From Amoebophrya sp. A120 (lineage: Eukaryota > Protista > Dinoflagellata), in assembly GCA_905178155.1 (NCBI GenBank), contig CAJINV010000005.1, positions 4,940,256 through 5,004,255 of the forward strand: a stretch of 64,000 bases of DNA, in the 5' to 3' direction. The notes under the pieces are model-generated. The model saw only the letters and a program-made list of their open reading frames with translations, was not told the DNA's origin and searched no databases. Positions 1-63,100 of this stretch are shown here, piece by piece. The first letter of the stretch is position 1, and every line of letters starts with the position of its first letter. A program made the position numbers and the translations under genes.

Positions 1-188
1 GGGGGAGCCTTGCATCTTCAGCATGATAGGAGGCAGCTGAGAGTGGGAAACAGCATGACAACTTGCCTGCAAACGAGACCACGACTGCGGCTCTTGGCCT
101 TCTAGCATGACAAGTCGATTTGGTACCTCAAATCCTGCATCACAGATTTCCATTTCGATATGGGGAGGGGGGATTTTTCCGTTGGATA
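1..188. mobile_element. Introner, family C (partial, right end only)
   Basis: Ends gatatggggaggggggatttttccgttggata; homologous to 2779-3089. Confidence 0.85.
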
Positions 189-3100
189 TTTCGTGTCCGA
201 CAACTTCGTGTGGAACTTAGACATCTACTGCGACGCCATATGGATTGTAAAAGTGTCTGGGTCTGGAAACTTGTGATGCTGGGTGGCGTATCATGAAAAG
301 GCCACAGATGCTGGCTCAGCACGACAAGCTTTTGAGCTTCTAGGTGTTGCCTATTCTGCATGACAAGCTGCGTTTCTGCATGGCAGCAGAATGGGGCTCT
401 TGGGAAACGGGCATAACAGATTTAAGAGTCATGCGAGACTAGCATGACAAATCTCGCAATCTTCCAGACCCAGACATTTTTGCATTCGATACGCCATGAA
501 GTTCTACGACTTCAACGACGCGGATAAAAACCTCGACGAGTGGTACCACATGGCGCTGATGTGGGACAAAGCGGCGCTGAAGCATAGAGTGTACGTATTC
601 CGAGTAAAAACATCCCCACTCCAGAGTTGTCATGCAAATTTGCATGCCAAAAAAGTTTCTCATGCGGAGCCCCATGAGAAGCTTTTTCTAGTCGTGTTTT
701 GGGATTTGTGATGCTAGAAATAGCATGATATGCTAGATCTGTGACGCTGCTGAACTAGCTAAACAGGATTACACGACGAGGACAAACTTGTCATGCGAGA
801 CAACCAAAGGTGGCCGATTTGTCTAGCAGATTTTCCACGTTGACTCTGGTATGGGGACGTTTTTACTCAGGATAGTACGTAAACGGTGTGATGATCAAGG
901 AGGGGACCACGGATAACGCGAATCTCCCCAACACTATCAAAGAAAAAAAGTTCGTCACGATCACTCATGCGCATTTTTGCAATGCAAAACTTTTTGTCAT
1001 GCGTAAAAATGCATCACAGCCAAACTTCATTAGGGATTTCCCTAGTATTTCTGCAATACAAGGAAAGTTTTTGATGCTGAGAAAATTTGTAATGCAAAAC
1101 CTGCAAGTTAGTGACTGTGACAAACTTGTTTCTCTCCATAAACACGGAAGTAGCGACAGGGAAGATCTGCCTGGGCGGCCGCGTGGATCTCTGCTGGGGG
1201 CAGGCGTCCGAGCGGTACCAGGGGGAGGTCGCCGGGTTTGCGGTCTACGCCGGGGCTCTAGGGGAGGCTGAAGTGATAAAACACATGGCCAGGACCGGGC
1301 CGCAGGGGCCGGTGCCTAGCTTTACGGAGCCGCCTTTTAAGGCGCAGATGCCGAAGGACACGACTGTGACGGTAGGCTACAAGCACACGAAGGAAAGTAT
1401 GTCTACCCGACCTTATGCAGAAGCCGAAACCATCCTCGGCCCTGCAACTTTTATCCGCACGACGCTCGCGGTTTCCCACGCGGACGGGCTGAAGAAGCTG
1501 GGAGCTTCTGTGATGTCCGAGAAGTTGGAAAACAGCTTCGAGAAGATTTTCCAAGAAAAAGCGGAATTGGTATTCGGATCAAATGTGAAAAAGCCCACCG
1601 AAAATTACCCGCCGCGGCTAAAGGGTATTTCCGTCGTGAAAACGACGGAAGCCGCTGCGAATTCCGAGCTTTTTTTGGAAGTAGTTCTCTCCTTCGCGGA
1701 TTGCACGCCGAGTGCGCTCGCGCGATTGCTGGTCCAACTATCGGACAATGCCGGTAATTCCGCCACAACGAGATCTGAGCTGGAGAAGAAGCTCACTTCC
1801 CTGTCCACTCCGAGCGGTTTCTCCGCGGTCCGGTTCTCCAACCGGGCGCAGGTCTTGCCGTCGTTCGACTACCCGGTGGCTTTTGATATCGAACTGGTCG
1901 GGATGGATAGTGGGAATAAAACTGAAGTGCTGAAACAGTTGGAAAACGGGGATAAGGAATTCGTCTTCGAGTCCGAGTGGCAATCCGCTTTTTCCGCCCT
2001 CCTCGGGCCGGCGGTGCGGCAGGCTTCTTTGACGAACAATTTTGATCTCGCCGTTGAGTCCGGTTTAATCGCCGCCACTGTCGCCACAAAGCGGTTTTTC
2101 CGGGGACCCACCACCACGACAACCACCACCACCGCGGGGTCGTCTCTCCGACTGCTGGGTGAAGAGGAAAGACGACAAATAGCAACCAGAAGATCTCTGT
2201 CCAGCAGCTCTGACGGCTCGAAGGAGGTTCTTAAAGTTTTCGTCACCGCCTCTCTGCCCGGTACCGAGGATCTCATCGGTTCTGGAACAATTTCCGTTCT
2301 GCAAGACCAAATCTTTTCCGCCGCAGCGAAGATCGTGCAGACGGTGAGCAAAAAATCCTCAGAAAACGTGAAAATCGTCCAGAACTCCGTGGATGTCGAA
2401 ACGGTGCACACCAAATACGCCCCCGGCGCGAAGACACAAAAGCAGACGGCCACGTTTTTGACAAGTCTGACGTTGAATCACGCGGAGGACAAGTTGTCCG
2501 CTTTGGATTTCAAATTCGGCTTGGCGAAGGGGTTGATTGCGGGAGGAAGTACCTCTTCCACGAAGGACTACCTAGCGTTGAACAACCTCCACGGCAAAGC
2601 CTTCCACGGCCAGTCCGGCGAGTCTTTTGGTGTTTCCCTCCTCGGCACTTCCGATAGTCTCAATTTCGGGGCGATTTCTGCTGGAGATTATCTCCAACCG
2701 CCAACCGGTAGTTCAGCCACCTGGGCGGCTGCGAGCGCGATTCCGTTCCTTGCCGTGTTCCCGCAGGTGGAGAAATCCTATTACAATGAAAAATGCCCCC
2801 TCCCCATATCAAAACGGAAATCTGTGATGCAGATTTGTGGTCACAAATCAGCTCTGTGATGCCAGAAGGGAAGAGATGCGTATTGTAGTGCTGGCTGGCG
2901 CAGGAACGCCTTGCGTCTTCAGCATGACAGGAGGCAACTGGAAATGGGAAATAGCATGACAAATTGCCTCCAAACGAGGGAGCAACTGCGTCTCTTGGCC
3001 TTCTAGCAATGCAAGTCGATTTGTGTACTCAAATACAGCAATACAAATTTCGTTTTTGATATGGGGTGGGGGGATTTTTCCTTTTGATAAATCCACTGGG

Positions 3101-6100
3101 TTGGTCAGGACGGCGAAATTTGACTCGAATTTGGCGTATGACAGTTCCTATGGATTGCAAAAATGTCTGGGTCTGGAAGAATGGCAGGTCTGTCATGCTC
3201 TGCTAGCATGACTCCAAAGTCTGTCATGCTCGTTACCCAAAAGCCCCACTTTTCTGTCATGCTGAAACGCGGTTTGTCATGCAGAATACGTAACACCTAG
3301 CAAGTCAGAAACTTGTCATGCTGAGCCGTCACTTGTGCCGTCCTCAGGATTCGCCAACCAGCATTACAAGTTTCCAGACCCAGACACTTTTGCACTTGAT
3401 AGTTCCTCCATCGTGAGTTATGATTCGAAGTTAACGACATTCCTGATTTCCGACGGGATTTTCGGCAGTGCGAAAACGAACGGCGGGATTTCCATGTGCG
3501 ACATCGGCTGCTCGGATGCTTCGACGGATTTCTGCTACGACAAACTCGTCAGCGACGTGGAGAAGGGGACTGTTTCGAGTTCGGACTCCACTAAAACGTC
3601 TTCTGCTGGGGAGAAGTATTTGAGGAAAACCAGTTACAGTGTTGCTGAGTGCGGTCGGACGGCTGTGTTGTTTCAATCTTCGTTTCCAAACGATGTGAAC
3701 GCAGCGAAAGCGGGGAATTTAGAAGACTGTTTAACTTACTGCGATACGCTTGGCCGTGTGAATTGCGCGGGGGTGAAGTTCTTTACTTCCTCGGGGACAA
3801 AGAAGTGCTTTTTACAGAAGTTCTCGTCCAAGGATTTTTTCAGCCGCGCGAAGGTTTTGTCTTCTGCCCCGACCTGCGGATCCGATGTCGCGTGTTTCGA
3901 GAAGCAAACGACGGGGGAGAATGAACCACTGTACACGGAAATGTTGAACCCGGCAACAGTTCCGGCCAAGAAGGGGCTGTGCGCAACAGGGAGCCATACA
4001 AATTTTCGTCTGCTGCCGGACCTCCGCGGTAGGGTTAAGGGGAACAAGTACAATTGTATGGAGCTCTATGCAATACAAATTTCCCCGTACATGTACAACA
4101 TGCATCACAAATTTCACCAATTTGGAGCGTAAAACTTGTCATGCTAAACTAGGATCAAAGCCATGTTTTGTCATGCAGAGACCGCATCTGTACGTGTGCG
4201 GGAAATTTACTGTGCATAAGCTCTGCACAGAGTACGGTCCGGATTGCGTTGGCGTCGCGGGTGTTCAGTTTAACAACGGCAATGACGGAATGGAGGCGGA
4301 CGGGACCGTGTTTTGTGAGCTGGAACTCCGCACCGTCGCCAACCTGGATGACAAATACCTTTCCTGGGGCTTCACCCTGAACGATTCGGGTTTTTCTACC
4401 TCGGAACCCGCGGCGGCTCTCAACACCGTGCAGCCTCGGACGGAACCGGCTGAGTGCTGGAAAAAGACGGCGACTGCAACGACGACGAACGGCCCTTTCG
4501 CCTCCTTGTCGAAGTTGTATGAGCAGAAGATCTCCGTTTTGAAACAGCAAGCGCAGAAGGCTGTCATGCCGTTTTTGACTATGGACGCGAAGGATCTACC
4601 CCACCCGTTGCTCGGCCAGAAACTAAACCTCGCGAGTACCCCATTGGACACGTTCACGAATAGAATCGTCACTGCGTCCTCGAACTTCAGTCCGGGAACG
4701 TACTACCAATTCTTGGGGTACGGAAACGCAAAATCCTCTTCGAATGGTTTGGTTGTCTCCGGTTCTCGCAAGTTCTACACGACTTATCAAATGCAAAAGT
4801 GTCTGGGTCTGGAAGGATGCGAACTTGTGATGCGTGTTGCGGATCATACAAAAATCTGTGTTGCATGACTTGCTAAAGTTCCCCATTTCTAGCCATGCCG
4901 GGGGGGGGGGTATTTCTCATGCAGAATAGGCATCACCAAGCGGCTGCAGAACCTGTGATGCTAGGCCCTGCATTACAGACTTGGTGGAGCTTGGAAAAAA
5001 TGCATGACAGATACCGGAATTTTCCAGACCCAGACATTTTTGCATTTGATACGACTGGGAATGGTGCGATCGCGCGGAGTGACAACGGGGTGATGGAGTA
5101 CGAGTTGATTTACAAAAATTGCTTCAACTACTGCGACTACCTCGGAAAACATTGTCACGCGCTCTCGATTCAGGTTGATTTAACCGACGGGAGTACCGGG
5201 AAGTACCAGTGCTTTGTCATGCTGGCCTCCCAGCCGGCTGCTACTCTTCTTCCGACCGCGCCGGCCAACACGGTGACAACCACGACAACCACGACGTATC
5301 AAAATGAAAAATCCCTTGTCCCCATATTGAAAAGGAAATTTCTGTTGCTGGATTTGTGTACACAAATCAGCTCTGTCTTGCAGTGGGGTGCTGCAGGCAA
5401 AGCCTCAGCCTGCTGCGTAGGGGTGTTTTGATGTAGGTGCTTAGCATAAAAGCAGAGGCCTGCCGTATAGGCGCAGCAGCATAATTACAAACCGCCTCCA
5501 TAAAGCGGCGCACTCTTTGGATTTGCCCTCTTGCAAGAGAGACAGGATTTGTGGCCACAAATCAGCGTCGCAAATCTTTAGAAGCGTGCCCTTTCAACAG
5601 TATGGGGAGGGGGGATTTTTCCTCACAATACCACGGCTTTTTCCTTCCCAACCATCTCTGTCACACGAGAGCCGGACACCGTGGACTGGTACGACGCCAT
5701 GGCGTTTTTGCCGGATAACGTCGGCTATGAAATGCAAAAATGTCTGGGTCTGGAAACTTGTGATGCTAAAATGTGGATGATGGAAACAGTTCCGAATGCA
5801 ACCCAGCATGACAACTTTCCAGAATGCTTTCTCATAGTCAATCCGCATGAGAAACTGCGTTATTGCATGTACAAAAGAGGCTGCGACTTGTGTTGGTTAT
5901 GCAATACAGGTTTCCTAGCTAAGGAAAGCAAGCATTACAAGTTCCAATCTTCCAGACCCAGACATGTTTGCAATCCATATCGGCGGGTTTTACGGCGGCG
6001 TTTGTTCGGACAGCAGCACGGAGGACATATCCTGTGTGAAAACGTCCCCACCCCTACAGAGTTGTCATGCAGATTTGCGATGACAGGAAGATTTGTAATG

Positions 6101-9100
6101 CGCATGTCCATGCCATGCATCACTAATCGCGTTTTGGAATTGGTGATGCTGTAAACAGGATAAGCAGATGGATTTGTGATGCGATTGTCCTTGCTAACAT
6201 GCACTACACTACGGAGTGCAACTTGTCATGCGTGGCTCCCAAAACTTCTGGATTTGTGTTGCTAAGGTCCCAACTTGACTTTTGATGGGATGGGGACGTT
6301 TTTACATATGATAGGACAAGGCAACTGTCTACGACAAAATCTGCGATGAGGCGGATAGCTCTATCGCGGACTGCGACAGTACTACGCACGACTGCTGGGA
6401 GAAGCCGGATACACTCGCTTCCGATCTACTCCCCAGGGACGTTTTGAACGAAATCGTGCAGAATCCGGACTACACGAACAACGGCCGGGGCGCCGGCGAC
6501 AAGTACGAGCCGCATCAGTACAAGCGCATGAATCTCGGCAGTCCGGATTTCGTCTACGAATTTGTGCGGCTCGGGATCTGCGGGACAGCAAACTACGGCC
6601 AGTACAACAGCGGGACAACGATTGTGCCGGACTATTTGTGCAATGAACCGAACGGGGGGCTAGACACAAAGCTAGGCGTAGGGACGTACGACAAGGTGCA
6701 AAAACGGCAATACATCATCCGCCAGTGCGACAAGTTTGTGAAAACAAACAGCTACTGCGCCGGGGTGACCTGGAACCAGGAACCCGACATGACGCACGCG
6801 AGTCCCGGGTACGCTAGGCCCTACGGCAGCATGGAGCGCAACATGAACGCCATGGCCATGCCCGGTTGCTTTCCGAGGAGTGGGGGCGGCTGGAGTGCGC
6901 CGGTCGGGGATATCACCGGTGTGCGGAGTAGCGGCACCTCCGGCAACGTGGACGGCGGCGGGAACGTGTGCTGGCGCCACAAACCCGTGCCTTATTCCCC
7001 GACGTTGTCGAAATTCGGCCACTGGTACAGTAGGTTTGGGACCAACAAAGCCGGGTCTGGGTTTTGTACCGCACAGAATGCGAACCCGAACAGTGGATCT
7101 GTGGTGAAAATCGCAGAAAAAATTACGCTTGGCGAGTGTTTCAACTTGTGTGATGCGATGGGCGCGGATTGCAAGGGAATTTCGATGGACAAGAGAACGA
7201 AATACAGTCACACGTACCAGGGACAAACCTGGTCGGCCCGCGAAGATTCGGACGAAAAAAGGGATTGTTATTTGAAGTTCAATGGGAAGACTTGCCAACA
7301 ATTGAAGCAATCTAACACCGGTCCGAAAAACGAAAAAATCACCTGCGATAACCTCCCGGCTGGAATATGAACTGCAAAAGTATCGCACTCGTATAAATGC
7401 ATTACAAATCTTCTCAGCATGAGAAATAAAATTTGTAATGCTGATTTGCCTTGACAATGAAACTTGTAATGCAAGACCAGCATTTATACGAGTGCGATAC
7501 TTTTGCACAGGATATGGAACCCCGCCGATCAATTGTCCGCTCGGTTGGCATATCAAATGCAAAAGTGTCTGGGTCTGGAAGAATGCAACTTGTAATGCGT
7601 ATTTCAGAACACAGAAAAGTCTCTCATGCATACGTAGCAAAAGCTCCCACTTTTTGTCAGCAGAGTAGGGGACTTGTCATGCGGATTCGGCATTCCGGAA
7701 GGTTCTCGAAACCTGTGATGCTAGAGCTTCCATGCCAGACCTTCTGTGTCATGCAAAAACAGCATGACTCTTCCAGACCCAGACATTTTTACATTTGATA
7801 TGGCAGAAGAGAAAGGACCCCAACTTTTTGTGCCCAGGTCGGTACGGGTGCTCCGCGAGTACGTGTTGCGAGGAGTCGACTTGTGCGAATAACAACGGCG
7901 GAAAAGTCGCGTCTGCTAGTGGTTTCGATTGCGCGTTCCACGGGGCGACGGCGCTATGCGGGGTAGATCCGAAAACCATCCGGTGTGGGAGAAACGGGGA
8001 GGGTTGTACGGTGCAGGACTGCTGTTCTACTGTGGCCACTGTATTCTGTGTAAAAACATCCCCACCCCAGAGTTGTCATGCAATTCTGCATGCCAAAAAA
8101 GTTTCTGATGCGGAGCCCCATGAGAAGCATTTTCTACCCGTGTTTTGGAATTTCAATTTGTGATGCTATAATCAGCATGATGTGCTAGATTTGTGATGCT
8201 GCTGAACTACCTCAACAGGATAAGGATTACACTACGATGAGAAACTTGTCATGCGAGACAACGAAAGCTGCCTGGCTGATTTGTCTAGCAGCTTTCCCAT
8301 CTTGACTATGGGGTCGTGAGGACGTTTTCACTCAGGATAAGACCAATGCGGTAATTACGGGTGGGAGCTCGACTGCCCGGGCAGTGGCGGACAAGACTGC
8401 ACGAAAAATTTTGGTGAAATTGCCCAGGCGGCGGCATTATGGATTGCAAAAATGTCTGGGTCTGGAAGGATCCAACTTGTGATGCTGTCTTTGGATTCTA
8501 AAAAAATCTGCATTGCATGACCAGCAAGAGGAGGGGGAGGCCAGTTTGTGTTACATGGAGAGGGTATTTCTCATGCGGAATAGGCATCACAAAGCCCTCT
8601 AAAAATCTGTGATGCTAGGCCATGCGTTACAGGCTTCGTGGCTGATGCAGAATATGCATGACAAACCTTCCATTCTTCCAGATCCAGACATATTTGCAAT
8701 GCATAGGCAGGAGGGCAGGAAGTGGTGTTCGTGAAGAGGAATGTGTTTGGCGATCAATTGTGGGATAGCGGTTACATCGCGGATTTCTACAAGAGTTCAA
8801 CCCAGTTGACCTCCAAAGCAGAATCCACCAAATACGGCGCAAGTAGATCAATCATCTCCCTCGGGACGCACTATGCCGTCACGAAAGATGAGTGTGCGGA
8901 CGCGTGCAACCAGTTTGGGGACTCCTGCGACGGCTTCATGCGGTTTCCGAAGGACAGTGCGGATACGACGAAAGCGACCTGCGCGCTGCAGCTCCTGCAA
9001 CCCAGGCCGTTGCACTGCGCGTTCGATTTCGGGAATTCTGCGAATTCGCCTTCAATAACCTCCGTTCCCGCCGCGGCTGATGTGGCAGATGGGGAGGCGA

Positions 9101-12100
9101 AAATCATCGCCGCATTGGCGAACGCGGCGAGCAACAACTTCGGGAGTGCGGTTAGTATCGCGAATAGCGATTTCAACTGCTGGGTCCGGACGAAGAGGGA
9201 GATGAGTCCCTACTATTTGATCCCGGGTAAAACGATCGGGATGGAATCTGTTTCGAGTACTTCGACTTACGACGACGTCATGCGGTACCACGGGGTGACG
9301 CGGGGAATTTGGCCGGTCCCATCCCACGTCTACCACATCTCGAAGTTGAACCCAACGACGCATTTCTACACGCCGATTGGAGGCACAACCGGCGGGTCTT
9401 GCGTCGGCGGGTTGGGAAAGCACGTGAAATCCGCGTTCGCGACTGTCTCCGGACAGACTCCTTCTAGTCAAGACAGCTACGCGCCGATTCAAGGTTGCTT
9501 CGACGCTTGTGACGCGATTGCGGAGTGTCGAGGGGTGTCTGTGTTAGTCGCCGGGACGTATTACGAGACCGGGAGTACCACGATCAACACGGCTGACCGG
9601 GATGTTTCTTGCGAGTTGCATTTAACGTCCTGCGCGAGCTTGTTCGACAGCACGTGGTCGGACGCCTGTACGACCACTACCACCACCACAACCTCCACGA
9701 GCTCGACCACTACTACTTCCTCCACGACGAGCTCGACTACGACTAGTTCGACCACGACAGAAACCACGACTTCGACGGTAACCACGACCACCGTGACCAC
9801 CACCACCGTGACTACAACGTCGACCGTGACCACGACCGTGGCCGACGGCGGGGGCCGGCGGAGTCTCATCGCAGCAGGAAGTTCTACTTCCACCACGCGA
9901 ACGCTCAGTGAAGCGCAAGCCAGATCTCTCGCTGGTGAAGACGCGGATGCGGTGTTCACGGTCGATAGTAGCAGAACCGGCGGGGAGTGGCAGTGCTGGC
10001 AGAAGCGGAACTTTGACAAAGTGATTTCCGGCGACTTCGGGGATTTGGCGCCAGCAGGCGGGTTGATCAGTAAAACGACCGTCGGGACCTGGTTTGCAAA
10101 GGCGGAGAAAGAAAGCTCGCAAAACACATGCTTAAACAAAGCGTTAAACGCGAATAAAGATGCGATTCTGGACTCCCCGACTGGAAACGCCGGTACCGGG
10201 GAACGGCGCGCTCTACTAATCGGGAACAGCGAGTCCGGGGGTGCGCAGCGCTGCGCGGCTTTATGTGCGGACCACAAGGACTGCGTGTTATGGATTGCAA
10301 GTATGTCTGGGTCTGGAAGAATGCAAGATTTGTCATGCTTGTCTGGCATGACTGTTATCTCTGTGATGCTTAGGCGCAAAAAGATCTTCTTGCCTGTCGT
10401 GCAAAAATGGAGGCTGCTATGCGGAATACGCATCACGCAGGTGCTCAAAAACTTGTCATGCTTGATCACCTATTGCGGTGAGCTCATTATTCACAAACTT
10501 GCATCACAAGTTTCCAGACCCAGACATATTTGCATGTGATACGTGTCTATTGTGTCCGATGTGAAGGGCGCGGAGAAGTTCTGCGTGCTGATCTTGGATA
10601 TCTCGACTCCCTCAATTCCGAGTGCCAAGCAGGCGACTTGCTCGAGTTCGATCGAAGTGTTGAACACCGTGATCGCGGAGACCGGCGTGCAGTATAAGGA
10701 TTCCAGTACTACTACCGTGTTGCCAACATCGGTGAAAAAGTACACACTGTACAACGCGCCAGCAAGCTCTTTAGCCTCCGACAAACCCTTGACGACAACG
10801 GGCGGGTTTTTGGAGACGGTCGGATCTGCGGTTTCCTCCGTTACCTTCGACTTTACTGCCGAGTGGACGAATCTGAACAACGCGATGGCGGAAACGAGCT
10901 TTATCACGAAGGCTGTGAGCGCTTTGTCGTTTTTCCTCAAGCAAAACGTGCAAAGTACTTACACCTTCGCAACCCCGACGTTAGCCATGCCGACGTTGAG
11001 CATGGATACGTCCCTCGGAACGGTTCGGAATGATGCGAACATGATCAACTCTTTATCAAATTTGTTCGTCTCCGACCGGTACCCGGTGGCGAAGGTCTAC
11101 GCTTTGCAGCAGTTGGACGGGAACAAATTGAACACTGTGGTTTCCTTGAAAATCCAAATCGGGTTTGACAGTGCGGATATTGCGTTGTGGAACGAGATTC
11201 GGGGTTCTTCCATGGATAGTGGATCTTCCGCTCCAGGCGCCACGAAATTTGCCAAGTTATTGGAAACCTTCCGTCTTGCCTTAGAGTCGACTTTGGATTC
11301 CGCGATCTCGGGGAAAACCATTGTCCTCGGGGGGCCAGACTTGGTGTCCGGGTTTTTCAATTCGAATAGTGAAATAACCGTGAGTTTCCCCGTGTCTGCT
11401 GGTTCGGAATCAGTTTCGGATAACCAGATCGTGACGAAAGTTCTTGAAACTTTGACGAACTGCGACAATGGATCCACTTTCTTGAAGACCATATGCATTG
11501 CAAATGTGTCTGAGTCTGGAAACTTGTGATGCAAGGAAGGGAATAGTTTGCATATTGGACTGCGCTGCCAAGCATGACAAGTTTTTCCGTTGTTCTCAGT
11601 TGCGCATTCCGCATGAGAAACTCCATTTTTTCATGACAGTCAAGAGGAGCTCTTCGAGGCCACGCAATACAGAGCTTAGAGTCATGCCAGACTGGCATGA
11701 CAAATATCGCACTCTTCTGGACCCAGACATTTTTGCATTTGATAAACCACCGTGAAAAACCAGTGGCAAACCAATATCGCAGCGGTTTCGGACATCGCGG
11801 GCTTGACGCTATCCTGAGCAAAAACATCCCCACGCCAGAGTTGTCATGCGAATCTGCATGCCTAAAATTTCTCTCTTGCGGAGCCCCATCAGACGCATTC
11901 TCCAGTGGTGTGGTGAAATTTTTGTATCTCGAATCAGCATGAAGAGCTAGGTTTGTGATGCTGCTGCACTAGCTAAACGGGACCCTATTGCGAGCCCAAA
12001 CTTGTCATGCGCAGCAGAAAAAGCTTGTTGATTTGTCTTGCAGATTTCCCTTCTTCACTATGGGTTGGGGAAGTTTTTGCACAGGATAGACGCTCACTTC

Positions 12101-54100: not shown

Positions 54101-57100
54101 GGCGAATTCTGTCGCGCCGGCGGCTTCGAATTCGCAAGTCACGGGCTTGACCTGGAAGGGGTACAAGAGCAGTAGTAGTTCTTCTAGTTCATCTTCCTCT
54201 TCTCTGCGGGCTCTGACCAGCTTGGAAGGGAGATTTATCAAATGCAAAAATGTCTGGGTCTGGAAGATTCTGAGATTTGTCACGCAGTTTTTCCAAGCTC
54301 CACCGAGTCTGGAATGCAGGGCCTAGCATCACAGGGTCCGCAGCCCCTTCGTGATGCCTGTTCTGCATGAGAAATGCCCTCTCAGCATGGCCAGAAGTAC
54401 GCACCTTTTGCAAGTCACGCAGCACAGATTTTTGTATGATCCGCAACATGCATCACAAGTTCGCATCCTTCCAGACCCAGACGTATTTGCAATGCATAAG
54501 ATTTGAACAACAGCAAGAACAACTCGATTTCGCCCTCGAGCACATGGATCTTTTGGACGAGAACTACGAGGAAACCGCGGCTCTCCGGGAGTTATCCTCT
54601 TCTTCTACTTCCACCGCCGCTGTTGAGCCAAATTGGTCCGCGATGGCGGCAACAACGGATCTGTCCCTCCAGTCGAAACCCCGCGCGTTCTTTCTGGAAG
54701 TGCCGGTGGACTTGACTGTGGTGCATTCTCTGACGCAATTCTACAGCAAGGAATACATTTCGATTCTCTTGAAACAAGCGACGTTCGATTTAGTCGAGGC
54801 AGAAATCGTGAATGTCGGATCTAGTAGTGAAACCGTCAGAACCACTGCTTTGTCCGCCTGGAAGCAGAAATTGGAAAAACTAACCGGAACGGTTTCCGCC
54901 GGGAGTCCTCGAACCGGGGGGCAGAACAGAGTCGATATCGATTACGAAAACGACCCGGTTTTGCTCGTCGATTGCCGGTTTGATATCACCAGGTCGACGT
55001 CCCTTTCTGATGCTGCTTCCACCGATAAGGATTTCGCAGTGAAAGAAACAGCAATGGTTTTCCTGCAACTCCAGCAAGCGGACTCGTTCGTGATTGGACA
55101 AATCTTGACGATTATGGCCGATCAAACGAAGTTGCTGGCGAAACTACAGGGGCAAACCTCTTTAGGTTCGACTGGCGCGACCATCTTCCCAGAGTTGAAA
55201 ATCCTCTCCCGGGATGGTCTCCAGCAGGTCCCCGCAGGGGATACGGTCATCCCTTCCCTCGCCGTTTCGAAACTTCGGCTCCCCGTCATCGCTGACTTGT
55301 TAATCGACGAAAACGCCATGTTGAAGCCAAACGGCACGGTGGTTGCCACGGAAGTCGCGGACGCGTTCCGGGAGTTGCTGGGGGATGTGTTGACAACTGA
55401 TTCTTTCACGTTACCCGCTTCCTCCCTCATCGCAGAATCTTCGACGCAGGCGGCGGGTTCGGTTTACAACCAGTTTTTGTTCGATTTGTACGTGCCGATA
55501 AGTCTGTCTTCTTCTGTTTTGTCTGCGGAGAAATTGGCGTTTTTGAAATCCTCTAACGCTGCGGAATTCGTGAGACAGAAGTTGAACTCTGGGTTCGAAT
55601 CCGATAATTACACTTCCGGTCGCGTGAAACAATTGGTGATTAAAACCGGGGGGAGTTCTGTCCAGCAGGATTTCATCTCGACGCATTTTAAACTAACTCC
55701 CGCCCCGAACCCGGAAGTTTTCAAGGCGGTTGCGGCGTTCCAATCGGTCTTCGCGTCTGTGTTTTCCTCGTTGAAGGACGGAATACAATTCCCTCGGTCG
55801 GAGATGGTGGTTGTCGCGCCGGAAAAGAACCTCGCGGTGGACAAATTCTCCATCGTGATGCCGAGCAAGAGTTTGCTTTCGTACAGTGATGCAGAGTTGA
55901 TATCTGCACTGCAACAAACGGACAATCTGGCGAACTCCGTCACCCCTCGGTTAGAAGGGGTGGGAATTTCTCTATCCGCCGCTTACCCCCCGCCGAGTGG
56001 GACCTTGAAGTTGACGGATACAGCGATCTTACCGACCAGTTCGAAGGACGTTGCGACTTTGAACAAAAACTCGGGTCTGAACTCCAACGGCGTTTTGGAA
56101 TTAACCGCCGGGATTTCAGTTTTACAAATCGACTTCCGGGTGCTGTTGGCGAACAGCGAGAGTAGTTCTCCTGAGATGAAAACCGCTCGGCAGAAGTTGG
56201 GTTTTAGCGATAAATCGAAAGTCGGTGGTTTGTTGGAAGAACTGAAGACGTGGTTTAGGGCTGCGATCAAGGAATGTCTTGATTCAGGCTCCACCGCGGA
56301 AGTCGCGACGGTCGTTTCTTCCTCTAAGGTGAAGTCCGGGAAAGTATTGACGGGTTCGAAGACGATTCAGTCTAACAAACTCACCCTTTCCGTCCGGCTT
56401 TATACCGGGAAGGAGAGCAATGCGGAGGATGCTGCAAAATCCGTTCTCCAACTCTCCCAGATGCTGAATAAAGGAACAAGCAAATCCACTTGCGTCTTGG
56501 ATAAAGTGAACACGAACCTGCAGACTTTCACGACCTTATCTTCGTCGGATGCTAGTGCTGAGATCCTAACCGACTTCCCGATTGCTCTTCCAGTGATCCA
56601 GGGAAGAGGGTTGATTTCCGCCGGGGCAGGTTCCGCTGTCGTTACCGCGGTGAAGAAATCAGGGACTGGAGAAAATCCAGTTTCCCCACTAGCGAAAGCT
56701 TTATCCGATGCGTTAGCTGCTGCCGACGCGGGTAACGTCCCGGCTGAGATGATCACGGTGGACGTTCTCGCGAAAGCAACGCAAACCAGCACTAAAGCGC
56801 AGTTCTCCTTCGCGATTCCAGGTGCTTTCGGCCCGGAAGCTGACTTTTTATTGAAGTCCAATCCGCCCGAAACGCTGAAATTTCTGCTGGAGAAGAGCTT
56901 GAAGCTGCGGCTGAAGGAGAACACTGTGACTGGTGTTTCCACCACCGATGCGGAGAATGTGAAAATCGAACTCGCTTCTCTCAACGGGGCGAAGCAGCAA
57001 GACACGGTGTTTTTAACCGGGTTGGTGGAGATCCAGGAACAAACGAGTTCTGGAAATATTGACCCTGTGACAACTGCTTCCGCGTTGTCTTCCGGGTTGC

Positions 57101-60100
57101 GAGCCGTTGTTTCCTCCGCTTTGGAGAAGGAGGGTTTGAAGCTCGTTGCCCCCTCGGTTTCTTTCACGGATTCTGTTGTGAAAGCAACTCTTGTATCCCA
57201 AGGAAAAACTGTTTCACTGTAAACTTGTAATGCAGAAATTGTATCTCAGAAGTGCTTGTCTTGCTACACATGCAAGACAATGGATTTTTAGCGGTGTTGT
57301 CTCTTGGAAATCTCGCATAGCAAATTTTCTTTGTCATGCAGGACAAACTTGTGATGCAAAACTTGCAAAATCCTTAAAGTGAAACACTTTTTTCGTACGA
57401 TATCTTGCCGGTATGACTTCTGCGGAACAGGTGGATTCTTACCGGGTCAGCAACGTGATCGTCGCAGAAGTGACGAGTGCTGCGGATGTGAGTGGCGCGA
57501 CTGGGAAAAAGCTGTACTATTACATTGTGCCGTTGAACCTGCAGGAGCGGAATTTTGGAACAACGGCTGGTGGAGTAGCTTCTTCTACTCCCGTCGCTTA
57601 CTCCAATGTCGGAGGCGCTTCCCTCGCGAAGTTGCAAAATGTAACAAACAGCTTCGCTGCGGATTTCGACACGGAGTTCAACAAAACCTTCTCCGTGCTC
57701 GCGAACGCAGAAGGATTCGAACTGACCACGATAGTATCTTCTTCTGATGGTGGAGCTAGTAGTGCAACAAGTTCTTCCTCAACTGGTGCGGAAATCTCCC
57801 TCGCGAAGCAATTCGAGAAGAGCCTGCTGCAGCAACCGACCAGTTCGTCCCTCTCGCCGCTGTTTCTATCCTGAGTAAAAACGTACCCACACCAGAGTCA
57901 AGATGGGGATTTTGCAACGCAAACCTAGAACTTTTGGGGGTCACGCATCACAAATTGCAGTCCGTAGTTTAGTGCAGGTTCGCAAGGCCAGCTGCATCAG
58001 AAATCGATCTGCTCATCCTGTTTACAGCATTACAAATTCCAAAACACGACTAAAAATGCCTCTCCTGGCGATGCGCATTACAAATGTTCCTGTCATTGCA
58101 AATCTGCATGACAACTCTGGTGTGGGTACGTTTTTACTCAGGATAATTTCTCGAGACGAAGTTCATGGTCCAAGCAGACCTTTTGGACAACACTCTGGAC
58201 ATGAAGGACAAGCTATCACACAGAAAAAAGCAGGCAGCGCATGTTTGTAATGCAAAAACAAATAGACAGAAGAATCTGTCATGGGTTAATACCCCATAGC
58301 GTTCTGCTCAGGACATGCAATACAGATTTCTTTGTCTATTTATTTTTGCATTACAAATCTGACGCGTCTGCTTTTTTCTGTGTGATACAAGCAAACCAAG
58401 CTCGCGTTCGACAAAGTCGTCACCTCCCGGTTCCGCAGCGCAGTAGCCCACGCGTTGAAAGAAACGCTAGAGACTGAGAAGAAGGACCAACCGCTTTTAC
58501 CCGTTTCCTGCTTGATCGGAAAAGGGACGGAATCAAGAGAGCAAGCAGTAACCTCCACCACGACCACCACGACCAACCCAAATTGCTACCAGGAGAATCT
58601 GGCTTCTTTCCTTCCCGGGAGGTGGGAACTCTACATGTACAAGGGCGGGAGTGCTGGGAACGGCTACAATGACATGCGAATCGGGAAAAATGTGAATGGT
58701 CTGGGCACGCTCTGCCCGCACCCGACGAGTGGGAATGCAAAGATGGCGGAAGCGCTGTTCAACGAAAAGTGCTTCCGGCAAATTCTCGTCGTCGGCGGCG
58801 ACAAGACCTGGGGCCGAATTTGGTCGAAAGACGGGTCCTGCATCCCAGGCACCGACGCGTTTGGCACGGGTGCGAAGGGAACGATGAAAGATCGTTACAG
58901 CTCGGAGTGGAGCAGCAAGCCCGCTGGGGAGGTGGTGGATCTGCAAATAAAGCATGCGCACCACGGACCTATGATTGGCGATACCAACACGGGCAGTCAG
59001 TGGATGTGGCGGTGTAATAGCTACCCGAATTGCGCGCAGACCGATACGGGAAAAGTGGCTGGGGGTACCGGCCTGACGCTGTCGACCACCCTCGGGCGGC
59101 TGGTCACGGTGCCCGGCCAGGATCCCACCCAGGCAACGATGAGTTGGAACTGGTACGGGAGTCAGTTGTATGGTGTTGAGCCGGGCCCGTCCCCGTTCAT
59201 CCGGCAGCACCGGCCGATGACCTGTGTGGTTCAGGTGGAGCAGAGTGATGCTTCCGACCAGAATTACCTGCAGACGGTTATCGGGTTGTTGTCCGAAGCG
59301 GGTGTTGGGGACGCGGCGAGCAGTACTCTGAAGGAAAAAAGAGATTTGTTCTTGACCAATCTGGAAGTCCACTACAAGCAATTTCCACCCACGACGACCA
59401 CCACCCCGGCCGGGTATGTGGCGCCGCCCCCGCCGAGGTTCTGCCCGGCGGAGTTCGTCTGCCCGGGCGGGATGACGGTGAAGGACGGTGATGTAAAACT
59501 CTATCAGTGCCGGTCCCCGTATGGTTGCGTGGCGCTCGATTGCTGCAAAGTATCGGAGAAGAGTGTGTTTCAAGACGTGGCGTTTTCTGGAAAAATGGCG
59601 GAGTTTTTGGACGCGAACCACGTACTCGGTTTCAAGTACAAAACTGGGTTTGATAAAGAACAGATCTTTTCCACCGGTAGAGGTATCCTATGTAAAAACA
59701 CCCCCACCCCAGAGTTGTCATGCAAATCTGCATGCTGAGAATGTCTCTCATGCGGAGCCCCATGAGAAGCATTTTTTATTCGCGTTTGGAAATTTGTCAT
59801 GCTCCAATCAACATGGGAAACCGGATCTGTGATGCTGCTGAACTACCTCAAACAGCACTACACTACGAGCCCAAATCTGTCATGCAAAACAGCCAACACT
59901 TGTGGATCTGTCTAGCCGATTCCCCATCTTGACTATGGGGTGGGGACGTTTTTACATAGGATAAGAGGATCGTCGAGTTCATCTGCTGCGGAATTCCTCT
60001 CTTCCACCACCGCTTTCTTAGAGTTCGACGCGAAGAAGGTACTGGATGCGTACTTCACTGCCCACCAGTTCACATCTTCGAACTCCCCGGTGACTTTGTC

Positions 60101-63100
60101 CACAACGGATGCAGGGAAAATCGAATATGAGAGCATCAAACACTTCTCCACGATCGAAAACGATTTTTATCTGAACCACGGTGGTCTTGCCGTGCAAAAC
60201 CAGCTCCGAATGAAATCCCAGACGGATATCGACGCGATTTTCGCCGATTCCGCTCTGGAAATTCAGTTCACGCCAATCAGAGCGATCCTCAATTCCGCTT
60301 TCGGCGAGGCGTTAATGGATTTGACCGGTGTGGAGAATCTCACGCCGTTCCACGTGAACAGCAGACTGAGGAAGATCACGGGAACAGGTGCGGATCTGAA
60401 GGTTGAGCTGGCGGTTTCGATCCCCTACGCCACCCCGGAGTCCGGCTTTTTGAAGTTGATCTTCAAGAAGCTGGACAGTACTAGTACCGCGGGAGGTACT
60501 ACCAGCGCAGATAACTCCGTTTTCGGCAGCCGGATGAACAAAGCGTTAGCGAAGACGTTTGGGATGAGCGACCCAAATTCTGCGGATTTTTATCCTGTGT
60601 AAAAACGTCCCCACCCCAGAGTTGTCATGCAGATCTGCAATTGCAGGAACATTTGTAATGCGCGTCCCCAAGGGAGGCATTTCCAATCGTGTTTTGGCAT
60701 TTGTAATGCTGCGAACAGGATAAGCAGATGGATTTGTGATGCGGCCGTTCTTGCTAACATGCACTACACTACGGACTGCAACTTGTCATGCGTGGGTCCC
60801 AAAACTTCTGGATTTGTGTTGCTACGTTCCCAACTTGACTATGGGGTGGGGACGTTTTTGCATATGATAACTTCGGAATCAAAATCACCGAAGACGCGAA
60901 GGAAACGCAATTTGTGACCGCGAAGATAAGATTATCGCCGGAAGTGAAGGAGTCGCAGGAACTAACAAGTACGATTCCCAGTACTGGCGCAAATCTCAAG
61001 CAGTCTGCTTTCTCCGACGATTCCATGCTGTCGGTAGCTCAGGCTGCGGGGAGAAGTGCTGTGTTGGACATCCTGGGGCAGGCGGGGTCGAAGGTGAGCA
61101 CGCCGTGGTCTTTGTTGGCCATTCCGGAGGCGGTGCAGAATGAAGCTGGTTCATCTTCTACCGCCTCCTCTTCCCTGCGGAGCCTGGGTAGTAGCGCGTC
61201 TGAGCTGTTCGACTCCAGTAGTGCGCTGGTGGCGACCGGGCAGGAACTTGTTGCTCCGGCTGCGAAGAAGTGCTCGTCGCAGAGCGACCTTTTCTCCTCC
61301 ACCGGAGCGCTTCTCTTCGACAGTGACGTCACCACCGCGTGCACAGAAACCGAAACCACCCACCCGTTAGATCCGCGCGGCGACCACCCGAGTCCGATGC
61401 CGATCGACAGTTCATCCGCTGCTGCGTTGCGCGAACTTACGGCAAGTACTAGTGCAACAAGCAGTGCACAAGCGCAGAAGCGGCAGTACGACCTGAGACT
61501 GATCCTCCCATTGTCCGAGGAGATTTTCGACCCGGCAAACATCCAGTCGATCATAACCGCGTTCACTTCTGCCGGCAACAACTCCCCCTTCTACGGAAAG
61601 TTCGCCACAGAAATCTCCACCAACTTCCTCCCGCCGAAGCAACTGGCGGATGGGTCGACCAAGCCCGTGTTCGCTTCCACGAGCACAAATGATGTGATCA
61701 ACGTTTTGCTCCCAACCGCGTCTTCCTCCTCCGCGGATTTGTCTGGGATTACTGTTTCCGCAGATGTGCCCGCGCAATTTGGCATCAGCTACTTGCAGGT
61801 GAAGCTCGGCTTGATTTCCGAGCAAGGGATCCCGGCAGTCGCGTTGCAGAAGGCGTTTTTATTGGCGTGCAAATCGGAACTAGTAGAAAACATCATGTTT
61901 CCGAACAACTACAAGATCGATCAAGTCTCCGTGACCCACATCGGCCAGTCCGCGGCGGAGAACAAGAAGGTGCAAGACTTGTATTCTGCAGTTCTCTACA
62001 TCATATGAGAGTGCACAACTCCCCCTCCTCCTCATTTGTCATGCAAAATCCCAAATCCATATCCAGCTGCTGCCTTGTAGCACTGTTTGCATGACAAATT
62101 CTGGAAGCCCAAACAGTACTACACTGGGCACATAGATTTGTCATGCATAGGCTCCATGTGCGCTGGTGTTTGTATTGCTGTTCATGCCATACAAATGGGG
62201 GCGAGGGGGAGTTGGGCACTGTCATACCTCACCGGAGCGTCCCACAACGAGATTGGGCGGATCCAGAGTCTGTTCGTCCCGATGGTGGTTATGAAAGTGC
62301 ACAACTCCCCCTCCCCCTCATTTGTCATGCAAAATGCCTAAGTTACGCCGGGGTTCTTGGCAATGTTTGCATGACAAGTTCTAGCAGCCCAAATAGCACT
62401 ACAATCCTGCCCAAACTTGTCATGCAAAACCGGTAATCTTGCTGATGCTTGTATTGTTGTTCATGCAATACAAATGAGGGGGAGGGGGAGTTGTGCACTT
62501 TCATGGTGGTGAAGGGAAAAACGGAAGACGCGGCAAGTGATGGCCTCGCGAAGCAGTTTTTACTGAAGATTGGGGAGAATCTGGCGGATGAGCTGCAGAT
62601 CACAGACAGTGCGAAATATCCTCAGACCTTCACCGCTGACTTCGCCGATCCGGTCGCCCAGTCGATCGCGAAGATTGAGTTACAAAACGCTTTACCACCA
62701 CCCCCACACGACGCCGAAAAATGCGGCTACGACCCGAACCCCTCGATTCTTCCGGGCAAGTGGTTCCTCTACATGTACAAGCACGGACAGAATAAAGCGG
62801 CCAACGGCTGGAATGACATGCGGTTTGGGAAAAACGTTAATGGGTTAAATTCCCTCTGCCCGCACCCGACAAGTGGGAATGCGAAAATGTCGGAAGCGTT
62901 ATTCGACGCGTCCTGCTTCACGGAGCTCCTCGCGGTCGGTGGCACCGGCGCGTGGGCGAAAATCTGGCGCAAGGACGGGGCTTGTATCCCCGCGAAAGAC
63001 GCGTTTGGCGAGGGAGAGAAGCGGACGAACGGCTTCTACAGCATTGAGTTTTCCACGGGCTACAAGGGCGACGCGATTGTGAAGAACTTGTACCACGGAC

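Follow-up and report, generated by a model that had tools for sequence, protein, structure and literature searches.

The window, i.e., the whole 64,000-nt stretch of Amoebophrya sp. A120 DNA that was analysed, is occupied along its full length (1..64000, + strand) by a giant reading frame into which no fewer than 66 MITE-like introner elements are inserted and that is recognised by frame fusion after element removal. Specifically, when 58 elements were taken out together with one duplication copy each, the open frames fused, the longest reaching 3,011 codons. No Pfam family was found in seven long exons of this giant gene.

The elements fall into families, and most contain several sites of a short motif (given below with a sign for orientation, and with m for one mismatch). 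Family A, with 32 window copies, is exemplified by the element at 239..491 (TIR core GTCTGGGTCTGGAA, target duplication CGCCA; sites 271+, 319-m, 358-, 411-m and 442-), and another of its copies, at 17310..18432, holds a nested, site-free insert of ~850 bp and has sites only at 17351+, 17439-m and 18385-. Family B (13 copies) includes the element at 596..874 (TIR TATYCYGWGTAAAAAC.TCCCCAC, target duplication GTACG; sites 627+, 642-m, 657+m, 706+ and 788+), an element at 18775..19053 that is reversed in the gene (18853-, 18902-, 18935-, 18983- and 19014-), and one at 57867..58145 in which every site is antisense to the gene (57945-, 57994-m, 58027-, 58075- and 58106-). The frame stays open without the former of these two antisense copies, and open frame 52777-58474 spans the latter after its removal. 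Family C2 is represented at 2779..3089 (TIR GAAAAATSCCCCCTCCCCATA; sites 2822+m, 2854+m, 2883+m, 2922-m, 2954- and 3038-m), and family C1 at 5297..5630 by an element with zero sites at up to one mismatch; both are missing from transcript-like contigs. Smaller families are D (6 copies, e.g., 12312..12521, TIR TATCGCAAGAAAAAAGTGTTAC; sites 12343+m, 12375+m, 12434-m, 12450+m and 12467+m), H (2 copies, e.g., 4067..4218; 4070-m, 4102-, 4136+ and 4168+), F (2 copies, e.g., 7366..7514; 7399-, 7417-m, 7433+ and 7464+) and E (2 copies, 62004..62226 with sites 62036+, 62089-, 62138+ and 62170+m, and 62290-62504). The single element at 935..1140 has six sites stepping 16-18 bp (977+m, 994+, 1011-m, 1053-m, 1069+m and 1087+), the one at 58214..58387 has only two (58245+ and 58348-, each 36 bp from its end), and an intron-like insert at 26585..26800 lacks TAT...ATA ends yet contains 4 sites at up to one mismatch.

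The 43 elements found first all start with TAT, end with ATA and are flanked by a perfect 5-bp duplication, features that the element finder demanded for this set; in an inverted-repeat search that dropped the TAT requirement, most pairs still ended at TAT...ATA. As read from the element listing, G(T/C/A)AAA begins at position 8-12 in 37 of the 43 left arms, and the A-run is absent from family E. In 15 further elements the duplication has one mismatch, which in 8 of them lies at the outer base and would fit a 4-bp repeat. The elements thus show the makeup of A120-type introners, i.e., TAT, about 7 less conserved bases and at least three A, with direct repeats of 3-5 nt. Their interiors are not alignable between families, cross-family BLAST patches being only 20-53 bp long except for C1 vs. 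C2. A first, sequence-only reading of this DNA had called both the TIRs and the interiors of the families unrelated, which is right for the interiors but not for the TIRs, given their common TAT...ATA ends and duplication length. Its view that the families are held together more by one short motif than by their TIRs was likewise overstated, since these ends, mostly the A-run and the 5-bp duplication are common as well. The occurrence of the same ends and the same duplication in all families would fit a shared machinery.

The motif itself, TTGTSATGC, was found by sequence search as 136 exact matches on both strands of the window, compared to a mean of 1.61 (sd 1.22, largest 5) in 100 dinucleotide shuffles of the window, so that its proposed repetition inside the families passed the shuffle control. 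The commonest 8-mer of the window is the motif core TGTCATGC/GCATGACA (120 copies). Moreover, exact TTGTNATGC was counted 167 times in 18,283 element bp vs. once in the 45,717 non-element bp (9.13 vs. 0.022 per kb), bearing out the earlier impression that the motif is rare in exons, and with up to one mismatch the counts became 341 vs. 23. When representatives of the families and single elements were compared with 1,000 dinucleotide shuffles, 12 of 13 were enriched for the motif (fraction reaching the observed number at most 0.006), and the sole case lacking enrichment was the single element at 58214..58387 (fraction 0.083). Among interior 7-mers, the motif ranks first in families A, B, D, H and E and in s49323, while family F and s58214 have its GTAATGC form near the top of the ranking. 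The sites are confined almost entirely to the elements and are present in all families, the median number per element being 3-6 in all but one of the 11 window families.

Each site consists of two fixed parts, YTGT and ATGC, that flank one free base, with positions 2 and 7-9 nearly invariant across families and AAAYTTGT(C/G/A)ATGC as the extended word. Over 201 elements, the commonest single-change forms are T>C at position 1 (162) and G>C at position 3 (92), followed by A>T at position 6 (73) and T>C at position 4 (53); the variants named in the sequence-only reading equal the commonest of these forms. All eight coordinates that it had singled out are sites as well, 271, 627, 788, 4136, 26705 and 62036 being exact TTGTSATGC, and 7464 (TTGTAATGC) and 12375 (CTGTCATGC) being variants.

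Distances between adjacent sites peak at 15-17 bp for opposite orientation and at 31-33 bp (approximately three helical turns) for the same orientation, in agreement with the proposal that sites lie in both orientations some tens of bp apart. In the window, same-orientation pairs at 31-33 bp make up 63 of 262 adjacent pairs (permuted mean 7.1, max 15) and occur in 8 of 11 families at a 40% threshold; family A, as a ninth, shows them in part of its copies. Opposite-orientation neighbours at 15-17 bp account for 35 adjacent pairs, and a weaker site of opposite orientation is often present half-way, at 15-17 bp, between same-orientation partners. The commonest layout in 10 of 11 window families places the centre of the outermost site 36-50 bp from the end (only 1 of 3 layouts in family C1), so that the proposed site just inside each TIR holds in this looser form only. 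The elements therefore have the same short word repeated towards either end, outside the TIR and facing both ways, as expected of subterminal repeats. Site orientation relative to the end varies between families (outward in H, F and s49323), an observation that counts against the docking role considered below, and the six main sites of family B all face in one direction.

In 13 independent nearest pairs of elements, differences amounted to 18/399 (4.5%) in the motif, 397/2329 (17.0%) in the spacers and 75/806 (9.3%) in the TIRs, meaning that the motif changes about four times slower than the spacer (p = 9e-13, Fisher's test) and does not diverge at the spacer rate, which the sequence-only reading had named as an outcome that would refute its proposal. 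Column identities, which may be inflated by MAFFT pairing repeated motif copies with each other, were 0.855 for motif, 0.658 for spacer and 0.849 for TIR in the family B alignment, a motif value reached by 0 of 5,000 block permutations; the corresponding leave-one-out identities were 0.847, 0.484 and 0.871 for family A, 0.959, 0.665 and 0.831 for family B, 0.887, 0.514 and 0.687 for family D, and 0.713, 0.544 and 0.841 for family C. By these comparisons the conservation of the motif is on a par with that of the TIRs and well above that of the spacers. The word is conserved relative to its neighbouring sequence in non-autonomous copies, which again is typical of subterminal repeats. The lower divergence of the motif than of the TIRs in the nearest pairs runs counter to a docking role, and could mean constraint after insertion, pointing to a role in the intron.

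Enrichment and grammar recur in 486 kb of further contigs, none of which overlaps the window. These contain 136 elements in 14 families, every family having a median of at least 2 sites, with 7.96 exact sites per kb. The 31-33 bp class comprises 99 of 477 adjacent pairs (permuted mean 11.5), and the family median of the outermost site lies at 36-50 bp in 13 of the 14 families. Among 69 ORFs of at least 280 aa in these contigs no transposase or integrase Pfam family was detected, and no autonomous element was seen in either the window or the 486 kb of related contigs. A 6.2-kb candidate for such an element (in L071) was rejected, as it consists of two separate family F elements.

Removal of the elements could be followed in the X3 contigs, termed transcript-like here since the RNA label of the run is a guess in its record; raw RNA runs X12-X14 gave scant coverage of the giant gene. 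At 7 elements, what the X3 contigs leave out is precisely the element together with a single copy of the repeat (316, 258, 272, 339, 154, 255 and 333 bases). Specifically, position 2772 is joined to 3089 across the C2 element (skip of 316 = 311 + 5), 7360 to 7515 across the F element (154 = 149 + 5), and 5293 to 5633 across the site-free C1 element (339). The skipped ends are not GT-AG (e.g., AA..AT and TG..TA), and with the frames restored these boundaries match those of A120-type introners, the guessed RNA label applying here too.

Relative to the gene, sense and antisense sites number 133 and 90 in the window and 120 and 93 in the extra contigs, adding up to 253/436 (58%) in sense, a lean that a pure DNA-level role does not predict. 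Family B is mostly oriented with its sites in sense (10:3 in the window and 5:1 in the extra contigs, sum 15:4), as is family D (3:2 and 6:1, sum 9:3), and family A is without bias (12:11 and 13:11). At up to one mismatch, 55 of the 66 elements have at least one site in each orientation, antisense sites outnumber sense sites in 18, 2 have antisense sites only and 1 has none. The frame is open after removal of family B copies of either direction. That orientation matters so little, also in the unbiased family A and in the elements with antisense sites only or with none, suits a site that is read in double-stranded DNA.

Taken together, the motif is likely, as judged from its sequence pattern, to be the docking site of one protein that moves the elements or helps to remove them. 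The common binding code for one factor put forward in the sequence-only reading is favoured by the enrichment in 12 of 13 cases, the conservation and the single grammar, which do not decisively separate the transposase, the splicing or excision factor and the chromatin organiser that it named. We consider it about an even chance (probability roughly 0.5) that the array represents subterminal binding sites, on double-stranded DNA, for one sequence-specific protein of a shared transposition machinery. An autonomous element would provide a transposase or accessory DNA-binding protein in trans, and this protein would attach to the arrays, join the two ends of an element and cut at the common TAT...ATA ends, with reinsertion yielding the common 5-bp duplication. 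The inserted element would then leave the RNA via the non-canonical route already described for Amoebophrya, a step in which the paired ends, rather than the motif, would be the main requirement. Against this reading stand the negative ORF search in the extra contigs and the statement that A120 yielded no transposase (PMC7789003).

The motif could also act in RNA, as the landing site of a protein that flags the non-GT-AG introns so that they are removed precisely, U1 snRNA being reportedly absent from this organism; copies in both orientations would ensure a sense copy whichever way the element lands. The sense bias in both samples, the mostly sense-facing asymmetric families B and D, the prevalence of elements with sites in both orientations and the conservation of the motif above the TIRs in the nearest pairs would all agree with this, as would the report, in the available text, of introners that share no boundary dinucleotides and whose splicing route is not worked out (PMC7789003). 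Nevertheless, we regard it as a doubtful alternative: the frame remains open upon removal of elements that are mostly or only antisense, family A is unbiased, an X3 contig of guessed RNA label precisely omits even the site-free element at 5297-5630, and in Euglena, the other lineage rich in such introns, the genetically defined code, according to the abstract, sits at the intron ends (PMC12501133). A structural role, in which opposite copies pair in RNA or in the single-stranded DNA of a transposon and extend the hairpin joining the intron or transposon ends, with no specific protein, seems improbable. The frequent opposite-orientation neighbours at 15-17 bp invite such pairing, and RNA fold predictions show a somewhat higher share of paired bases in the motif than in the spacer (73% vs. 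63%), with many motif-motif base pairs in A, C2, H, F, E and s58214. Motif-motif pairing, however, concerns only 354 of 1,060 paired motif bases in these folds, short of a hairpin module, with 10/243 in family B, where the six main sites all share one direction, and 0 in D, C1, s935 and s49323. Moreover, pairing would leave room for compensatory change, but the same word is kept in every family.

It is equally hard to favour a binding site of some host factor other than a transposase or splicing factor, e.g., one acting in chromatin, silencing or transcription elongation, thanks to which genes would tolerate the insert. Such a site would accord with the same conservation and grammar and with the very high element density inside a transcribed gene, but the data hold no chromatin pointer, this reading does not explain why the sites keep a fixed distance to the cleaved ends, and a purely repressive site should vanish from active elements, yet it is kept. 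A functionless relic, either of one ancestor or of an exchanged two-site module of ~40 bp, is the kind of origin hinted at by the 20-53 bp BLAST patches that include this module (e.g., B 32-71 vs. F 68-107, 80% identity) and by its consensus being weakly similar between sites. We deem it very improbable, as the motif evolves so much slower than the adjacent spacers in the 13 independent pairs and the word survives where its surroundings have diverged past alignment. Finally, and as a long shot, one transposase-derived protein may read the arrays twice, i.e., as DNA for movement and as nascent transcript or template for exact excision, which would make the motif the recognition code of the U1-independent machinery that removes the non-canonical introns of Amoebophrya. 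If so, these introns would represent a functioning transitional form that links cut-and-paste transposons to introns.

The proposed subterminal docking sites have counterparts in TIR DNA transposons. Ac/Ds elements have AAACGG as subterminal repeats, En/Spm has 12-bp TnpA sites, and the Hermes octamer binds subterminal repeats. Target duplications are 8 bp long in hAT elements and 3 bp long in CACTA elements. As in these three systems, the window elements hold multiple copies of one word in both orientations, near but inside the TIRs, and this word is kept in non-autonomous derivatives and is distinct from the cleaved end. In contrast to hAT and CACTA elements, however, the target duplication is 5 bp and the sites are predicted from sequence alone. 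Furthermore, unlike in Ac/Ds, En/Spm and Hermes, one word would serve many families with differing TIR cores, and the sites run through the element over its entire 150-330 bp in a 16/32-bp rhythm. The duplications that DDE-integrase-like enzymes commonly leave are short, 4-6 bp, and the 5-bp length in the window would agree with this. A TIR-flanked A120 introner family with Copia/Gypsy-integrase-like ORFs ('family 38'; Gozashti et al. 2025, PMC12130899) is, as compared by its description in the available text only, a candidate source of such an enzyme.

In the available text of Farhat et al. 2021 (PMC7789003), A120 introners are described as having inverted repeats with TAT, approximately seven variable bases and an A-run, boundary direct repeats of 3-5 nt, a length of ~240 nt and no GT-AG ends, and as forming many families without an internal transposase gene, no transposase having been found in A120. 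The window elements resemble them in ends, direct repeats, length, non-GT-AG boundaries, division into families and absence of a transposase gene. Euglena nonconventional introns (Nomura et al. 2025, PMC12501133, abstract) likewise combine the lack of GT-AG ends with precise removal and pairing between the ends, but their required signature, CAG...CTG with set spacers, is a boundary one and, unlike for the window elements, no internal repeated word is reported in that abstract. We found no printed mention of the motif, and its core strings CATGAC and GTCATG are absent from the available main and supplement text of PMC7789003. The ends and hairpin of the introners were thus already described by Farhat et al., and what is newly added here, relative to that text, is the array of internal sites common to the families and the way in which these sites are spaced.

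The word TTGTSATGC occurred 136 times on the two strands of the window, compared with 1.61 ± 1.22 occurrences (largest count 5) in 100 dinucleotide shuffles, and its core (TGTCATGC/GCATGACA) was, with 120 copies, the most frequent 8-mer of the window, commoner than every word of the most abundant terminal inverted repeat (TIR). The eight coordinates at which the sequence-only reading had placed the motif all proved to be sites. Alignment of all matches yielded a longer word, i.e., AAA-Y-T-TGT-(C 0.51 / G 0.32 / A 0.15)-ATGC, and in counts covering the window and 147 fetched contig stretches, 432 exact TTGTNATGC sites were found across 201 elements, with C (226), G (117), A (84), or T (5) as the centre base. 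Few single changes were tolerated over these 201 elements (T>C at position 1, 162; G>C at position 3, 92; A>T at position 6, 73; T>C at position 4, 53), with position 2 and the terminal TGC being near-invariant, and the tolerated changes are the very variants that had been listed from the sequence beforehand.

The elements were located in two steps, first by inverted repeats and then by TAT...ATA ends flanked by identical 5-bp sequences. In the window, these searches returned 43 inserts of 149–322 bp and a further one of 1,123 bp, while permitting one flank mismatch brought in 15 additional inserts, and 8 more were located by eye at the remaining frame breaks, for a window total of 66. The + strand of the window (G+C ~51%) carries one very long reading frame, which these inserts interrupt at intervals of a few hundred to a few thousand bases, and when the first 58 were taken out, each with one flank-repeat copy, the frames fused (longest 3,011 codons). 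Without its elements, the window forms a single + strand reading frame that exceeds 15,000 codons by a good margin and is open at both window ends. Seven long exons of this giant frame had no Pfam family match, and the sole Pfam signal was PAN_4, under its cut-off, at 8707–10536.

At seven elements, contigs of run X3 joined the flanking exons and skipped exactly the element and one repeat copy (316, 258, 272, 339, 154, 255, and 333 bases), with skipped ends that were not GT-AG; the RNA label of this run is a guess only, so these skips are transcript-like rather than certain RNA. G(T/C/A)AAAA within the TIR could be rejected as a splice donor, given that at these joints the element disappears entirely, together with one copy of the repeat. 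The raw RNA runs X12, X13, and X14 placed 23, 2, and 0 reads on this gene, i.e., hardly any coverage and no splice evidence. In their anatomy, the elements are like the A120 introners of Farhat et al. (PMC7789003), to which they are assigned by likeness: the consulted parts of that paper describe inverted repeats that begin with TAT, followed by seven variable bases and an A run, direct repeats of 3–5 nt, introns of ~240 nt without common boundary dinucleotides, and absence of the U1 snRNA. For the sister strain A25, the same paper gives TTA as the start of the introners. The elements themselves are thus already known.

BLAST clustering sorted the window elements into families A (32 copies), B (13), D (6), C1 (4), and C2, H, F, and E (2 each), next to singles at 935, 49323, and 58214 (1 copy each). 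Cross-family alignments consisted of 20–53 bp patches only, with the exception of C1 with C2. The TIRs, described as unrelated in the sequence-only reading, turned out not to be so, since the families have TAT...ATA ends and a 5-bp (sometimes 4-bp) duplication in common, and most of them carry G(T/C/A)AAA starting at position 8–12. Contig depth in the DNA-like run X1 (window 44000–63999) was ~25 over unique exons, ~70,000 over family A ends, and ~25,000 over family B, depths that point to copy numbers in the thousands per genome. One family A element (17310–18432) contains a nested insert of ~850 bp (~17520–18370) that is rich in short repeats like CCTCTCGG/CCACCTC and has zero motif sites. 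In the X12 reads, position 17519 was joined via TTT to position 5931, a backward jump of 11,589 bases, and a loose end lay ahead of 17493 (window 17493–17519); both probably derive from another genomic copy of these repeats. An intron-like insert without TAT...ATA ends (26585–26800) carries four motif sites, and is bordered by tandem duplications of 17 bp at its left and 15 bp at its right edge that are mutually inverted copies.

The motif was the top interior 7-mer in families A, B, D, H, and E and in single 49323, and its GTAATGC form was among the top interior 7-mers of family F and single 58214. When one representative per family and two inserts with other ends were each compared with 1,000 of their own dinucleotide shuffles, the motif was enriched in 12 of the 13 representatives (shuffle fraction reaching the observed count ≤0.006). 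The exception was single 58214, of which the two sites are not enriched (0.083). The family C1 element 5297–5630 has zero sites at ≤1 mismatch, yet a transcript-like X3 contig leaves it out with the same precision. Weaker motif variants such as CTGTCTTGC and GATTTGTG are used in family C1.

Strict TGTVATGC matches numbered 235 on both strands of the window, with 196 lying inside 58 elements (15,858 bp) that had been delimited solely from their ends and flank repeats, 34 in 11 clusters later shown to be further inserts, and 5 solitary in coding sequence, where ~4 are expected by chance (45 kb × 2 strands × 3 words / 65,536). In the final annotation, 167 exact sites fell in 18,283 bp of elements vs. 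1 in the 45,717 bp elsewhere (9.13 vs. 0.022 per kb), in agreement with the earlier impression that the motif is rare in exons.

In an alignment of family B, the six main sites stood out as conserved blocks, while the regions between them differed widely between two subfamilies. Mean pairwise identity was 0.855 in motif columns, 0.658 in spacers, and 0.849 in TIRs, column scores that may be somewhat inflated as the aligner can stack repeated words on one another; among 5,000 random block sets, not one attained the motif identity. A leave-one-out scheme, which defines sites on a single copy and measures identity across the remaining ones, avoids consensus-defined sites, and gave motif, spacer, and TIR identities of 0.847, 0.484, and 0.871 for family A, 0.959, 0.665, and 0.831 for family B, 0.887, 0.514, and 0.687 for family D, and 0.713, 0.544, and 0.841 for family C. 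Finally, 13 independent nearest-neighbour pairs (81–90% identical) differed at 18/399 motif, 397/2,329 spacer, and 75/806 TIR positions (Fisher's test, motif vs. spacer, p = 9e-13). Since the motif was more conserved in all three tests, the notion that it diverges as fast as its spacers fails. Flank repeats differed at ≤15/290 positions, approximately equal to the 4.5% at motif positions, so that the data would also fit sites decaying neutrally once an element has inserted. The constraint on the motif may reflect selection on active source lineages or selection after insertion, both of which agree with the data.

Distances between neighbouring sites in the window elements were uneven. Opposite orientation prevailed almost throughout the peak at 15–17 bp (35 pairs), the 64 pairs of the peak at 31–33 bp shared one orientation without exception, and further peaks lay at 39, 48–49, and about 85 bp. 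The general 10-bp helical phasing that had been proposed as a check was looked for in these spacings and not seen, the sites keeping to the discrete 15–17 and 31–33 bp spacings instead. The latter class comprised 63 of 262 adjacent pairs, against 7.1 ± 2.5 (max 15) when site positions and orientations were permuted inside each element, and it was present in 8 of 11 families (40% threshold) when counted per family rather than per copy; part of the family A copies have it as well. In 10 of the 11 window families, the commonest layout has its outermost site centred 36–50 bp from an end; family C1 shows this in only 1 of 3 layouts. A family-weighted alignment of two-site modules (14 family labels) displayed a weak GCA midway between the sites, which would fit a decayed copy in opposite orientation, i.e., an alternating rhythm of 16 bp.

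To look outside the window, public metagenome contigs were scanned for 18 bases taken from the family A TIR. The resulting 147 loci amount to 486 kb of non-redundant sequence without overlap with the unique parts of the window, and since they were picked via family A, this family is over-represented and the others are present by chance. The end-and-flank finder retrieved 136 non-overlapping elements in 14 families, 5 of which have TIRs absent from the window. All 14 families had a median of at least 2 sites (4–6 in most), at an exact site density of 7.96 per kb. The 31–33 bp class recurred in 10 of the 14 families and made up 99 of 477 adjacent pairs, compared with 11.5 ± 3.5 (max 22) after permutation, and the first site lay at a family median of 36–50 bp in 13 of the 14. 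The presence of the motif in the elements is a solid and replicated observation.

Conservation, spread, and spacing together support well, in general, the idea of a putative common binding code for one trans-acting factor. As to what this factor does, we prefer subterminal docking sites for a shared transposition protein, at about even odds (roughly 0.5), over the recognition of introns at the RNA level, which appears rather unlikely. The latter draws on a lean of the sites toward the sense strand, both in the window (133:90 sense:antisense sites; 35 elements net sense, 18 net antisense, 13 ties) and in the extra contigs (120:93 sites; 33:24 elements). Strand in the extra contigs was called from codon usage (52 right, 0 wrong, and 14 no-calls on the window), since calls from open frames were unstable (net-sense:net-antisense 15:16, 24:12, and 24:10 with flanks of 90, 120, and 150 bp). 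The lean comes from the asymmetric families: those with mostly one-way sites favour sense in window and extra contigs (B, 10:3 and 5:1; D, 3:2 and 6:1), while symmetric family A has no orientation bias (12:11 and 13:11), and it could be due to any asymmetric feature of families B and D. An RNA reading that strictly requires one strand is difficult to maintain. All six main sites of family B point one way, yet its copies lie in the gene in either orientation (10 vs. 3), and removing either kind leaves the frame open; family A is split 12 vs. 11 in the window gene, and the siteless element 5297–5630 is skipped regardless. At ≤1 mismatch, 55 of the 66 window elements have sites on both strands, 8 on the sense strand only, 1 has no site, and 2 (24562 and 57867) have antisense sites only, frame continuity being the sole support for removal of these two.

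A purely structural role, in which motif copies pair with one another, is improbable. In predicted RNA folds, 73% of motif bases were paired (spacers 63%, TIRs 79%), but only 354 of 1,060 paired motif bases paired with another motif copy, with 10 of 243 in family B and none in D, C1, or singles 935 and 49323; a purely structural role therefore fails across families. Binding by some other host factor seems equally improbable, and the motif being a passive relic more so still.

A source of the trans-acting factor was also sought. None of the inserts of the window and the 486 kb of extra contigs has coding capacity, and a 6.2-kb TAT...ATA candidate for a long element (locus L071) was actually two separate family F elements. 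Among 69 ORFs of ≥280 aa in the extra contigs, no transposase or integrase family was found, these being host genes only, plus one phage-like chance contig. A C-5 cytosine DNA methylase is encoded at L016 (579–2078) and L039 (2796–4334), adjoining introner-bearing genes, although L039 stems from another record series and contains a phage-type terminase, and was thus probably picked up by the 18-base pattern only by chance. Copia/Gypsy-integrase-like enzymes commonly produce 4–6 bp duplications, and by this analogy the 5-bp duplication of the window elements would fit an integrase-like enzyme. The consulted parts of the A120 literature report that no transposase was found (PMC7789003), and describe a TIR-flanked intron-generating element with Copia/Gypsy-integrase-like ORFs (Gozashti et al., PMC12130899).

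Neither the main text nor the supplement text of PMC7789003 mentions the shared internal word (a logo in a figure being possible), the searched passages of PMC12130899 contain neither "subterminal" nor "binding site", and a full-text literature search for two of the 9-mers with Amoebophrya, introner, or dinoflagellate retrieved no paper containing the word. According to the consulted parts of PMC7789003, the introners of A120 have no boundary signals in common, and the route by which they are precisely excised is unexplained. A 9–13 bp word that is common to all families, conserved like the TIRs, and set in a fixed rhythm gives concrete access to the missing trans-acting protein: pull-downs with DNA or RNA can use it as bait, sequence searches can use it to trace autonomous elements as well as introners that are old and decayed, and it can enter genome-wide analyses of splicing efficiency as a covariate. 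If the factor is part of the excision route, the motif bears on the conversion of transposons into introns; if it is only a transposase, the motif amounts to a commonplace trait of a MITE group, albeit one not described before. Subterminal repeats are found in Ac/Ds, En/Spm, and Hermes, and as a class they are defined by binding of the element's own protein. In kind, the motif array would work like the subterminal repeats of these three systems.
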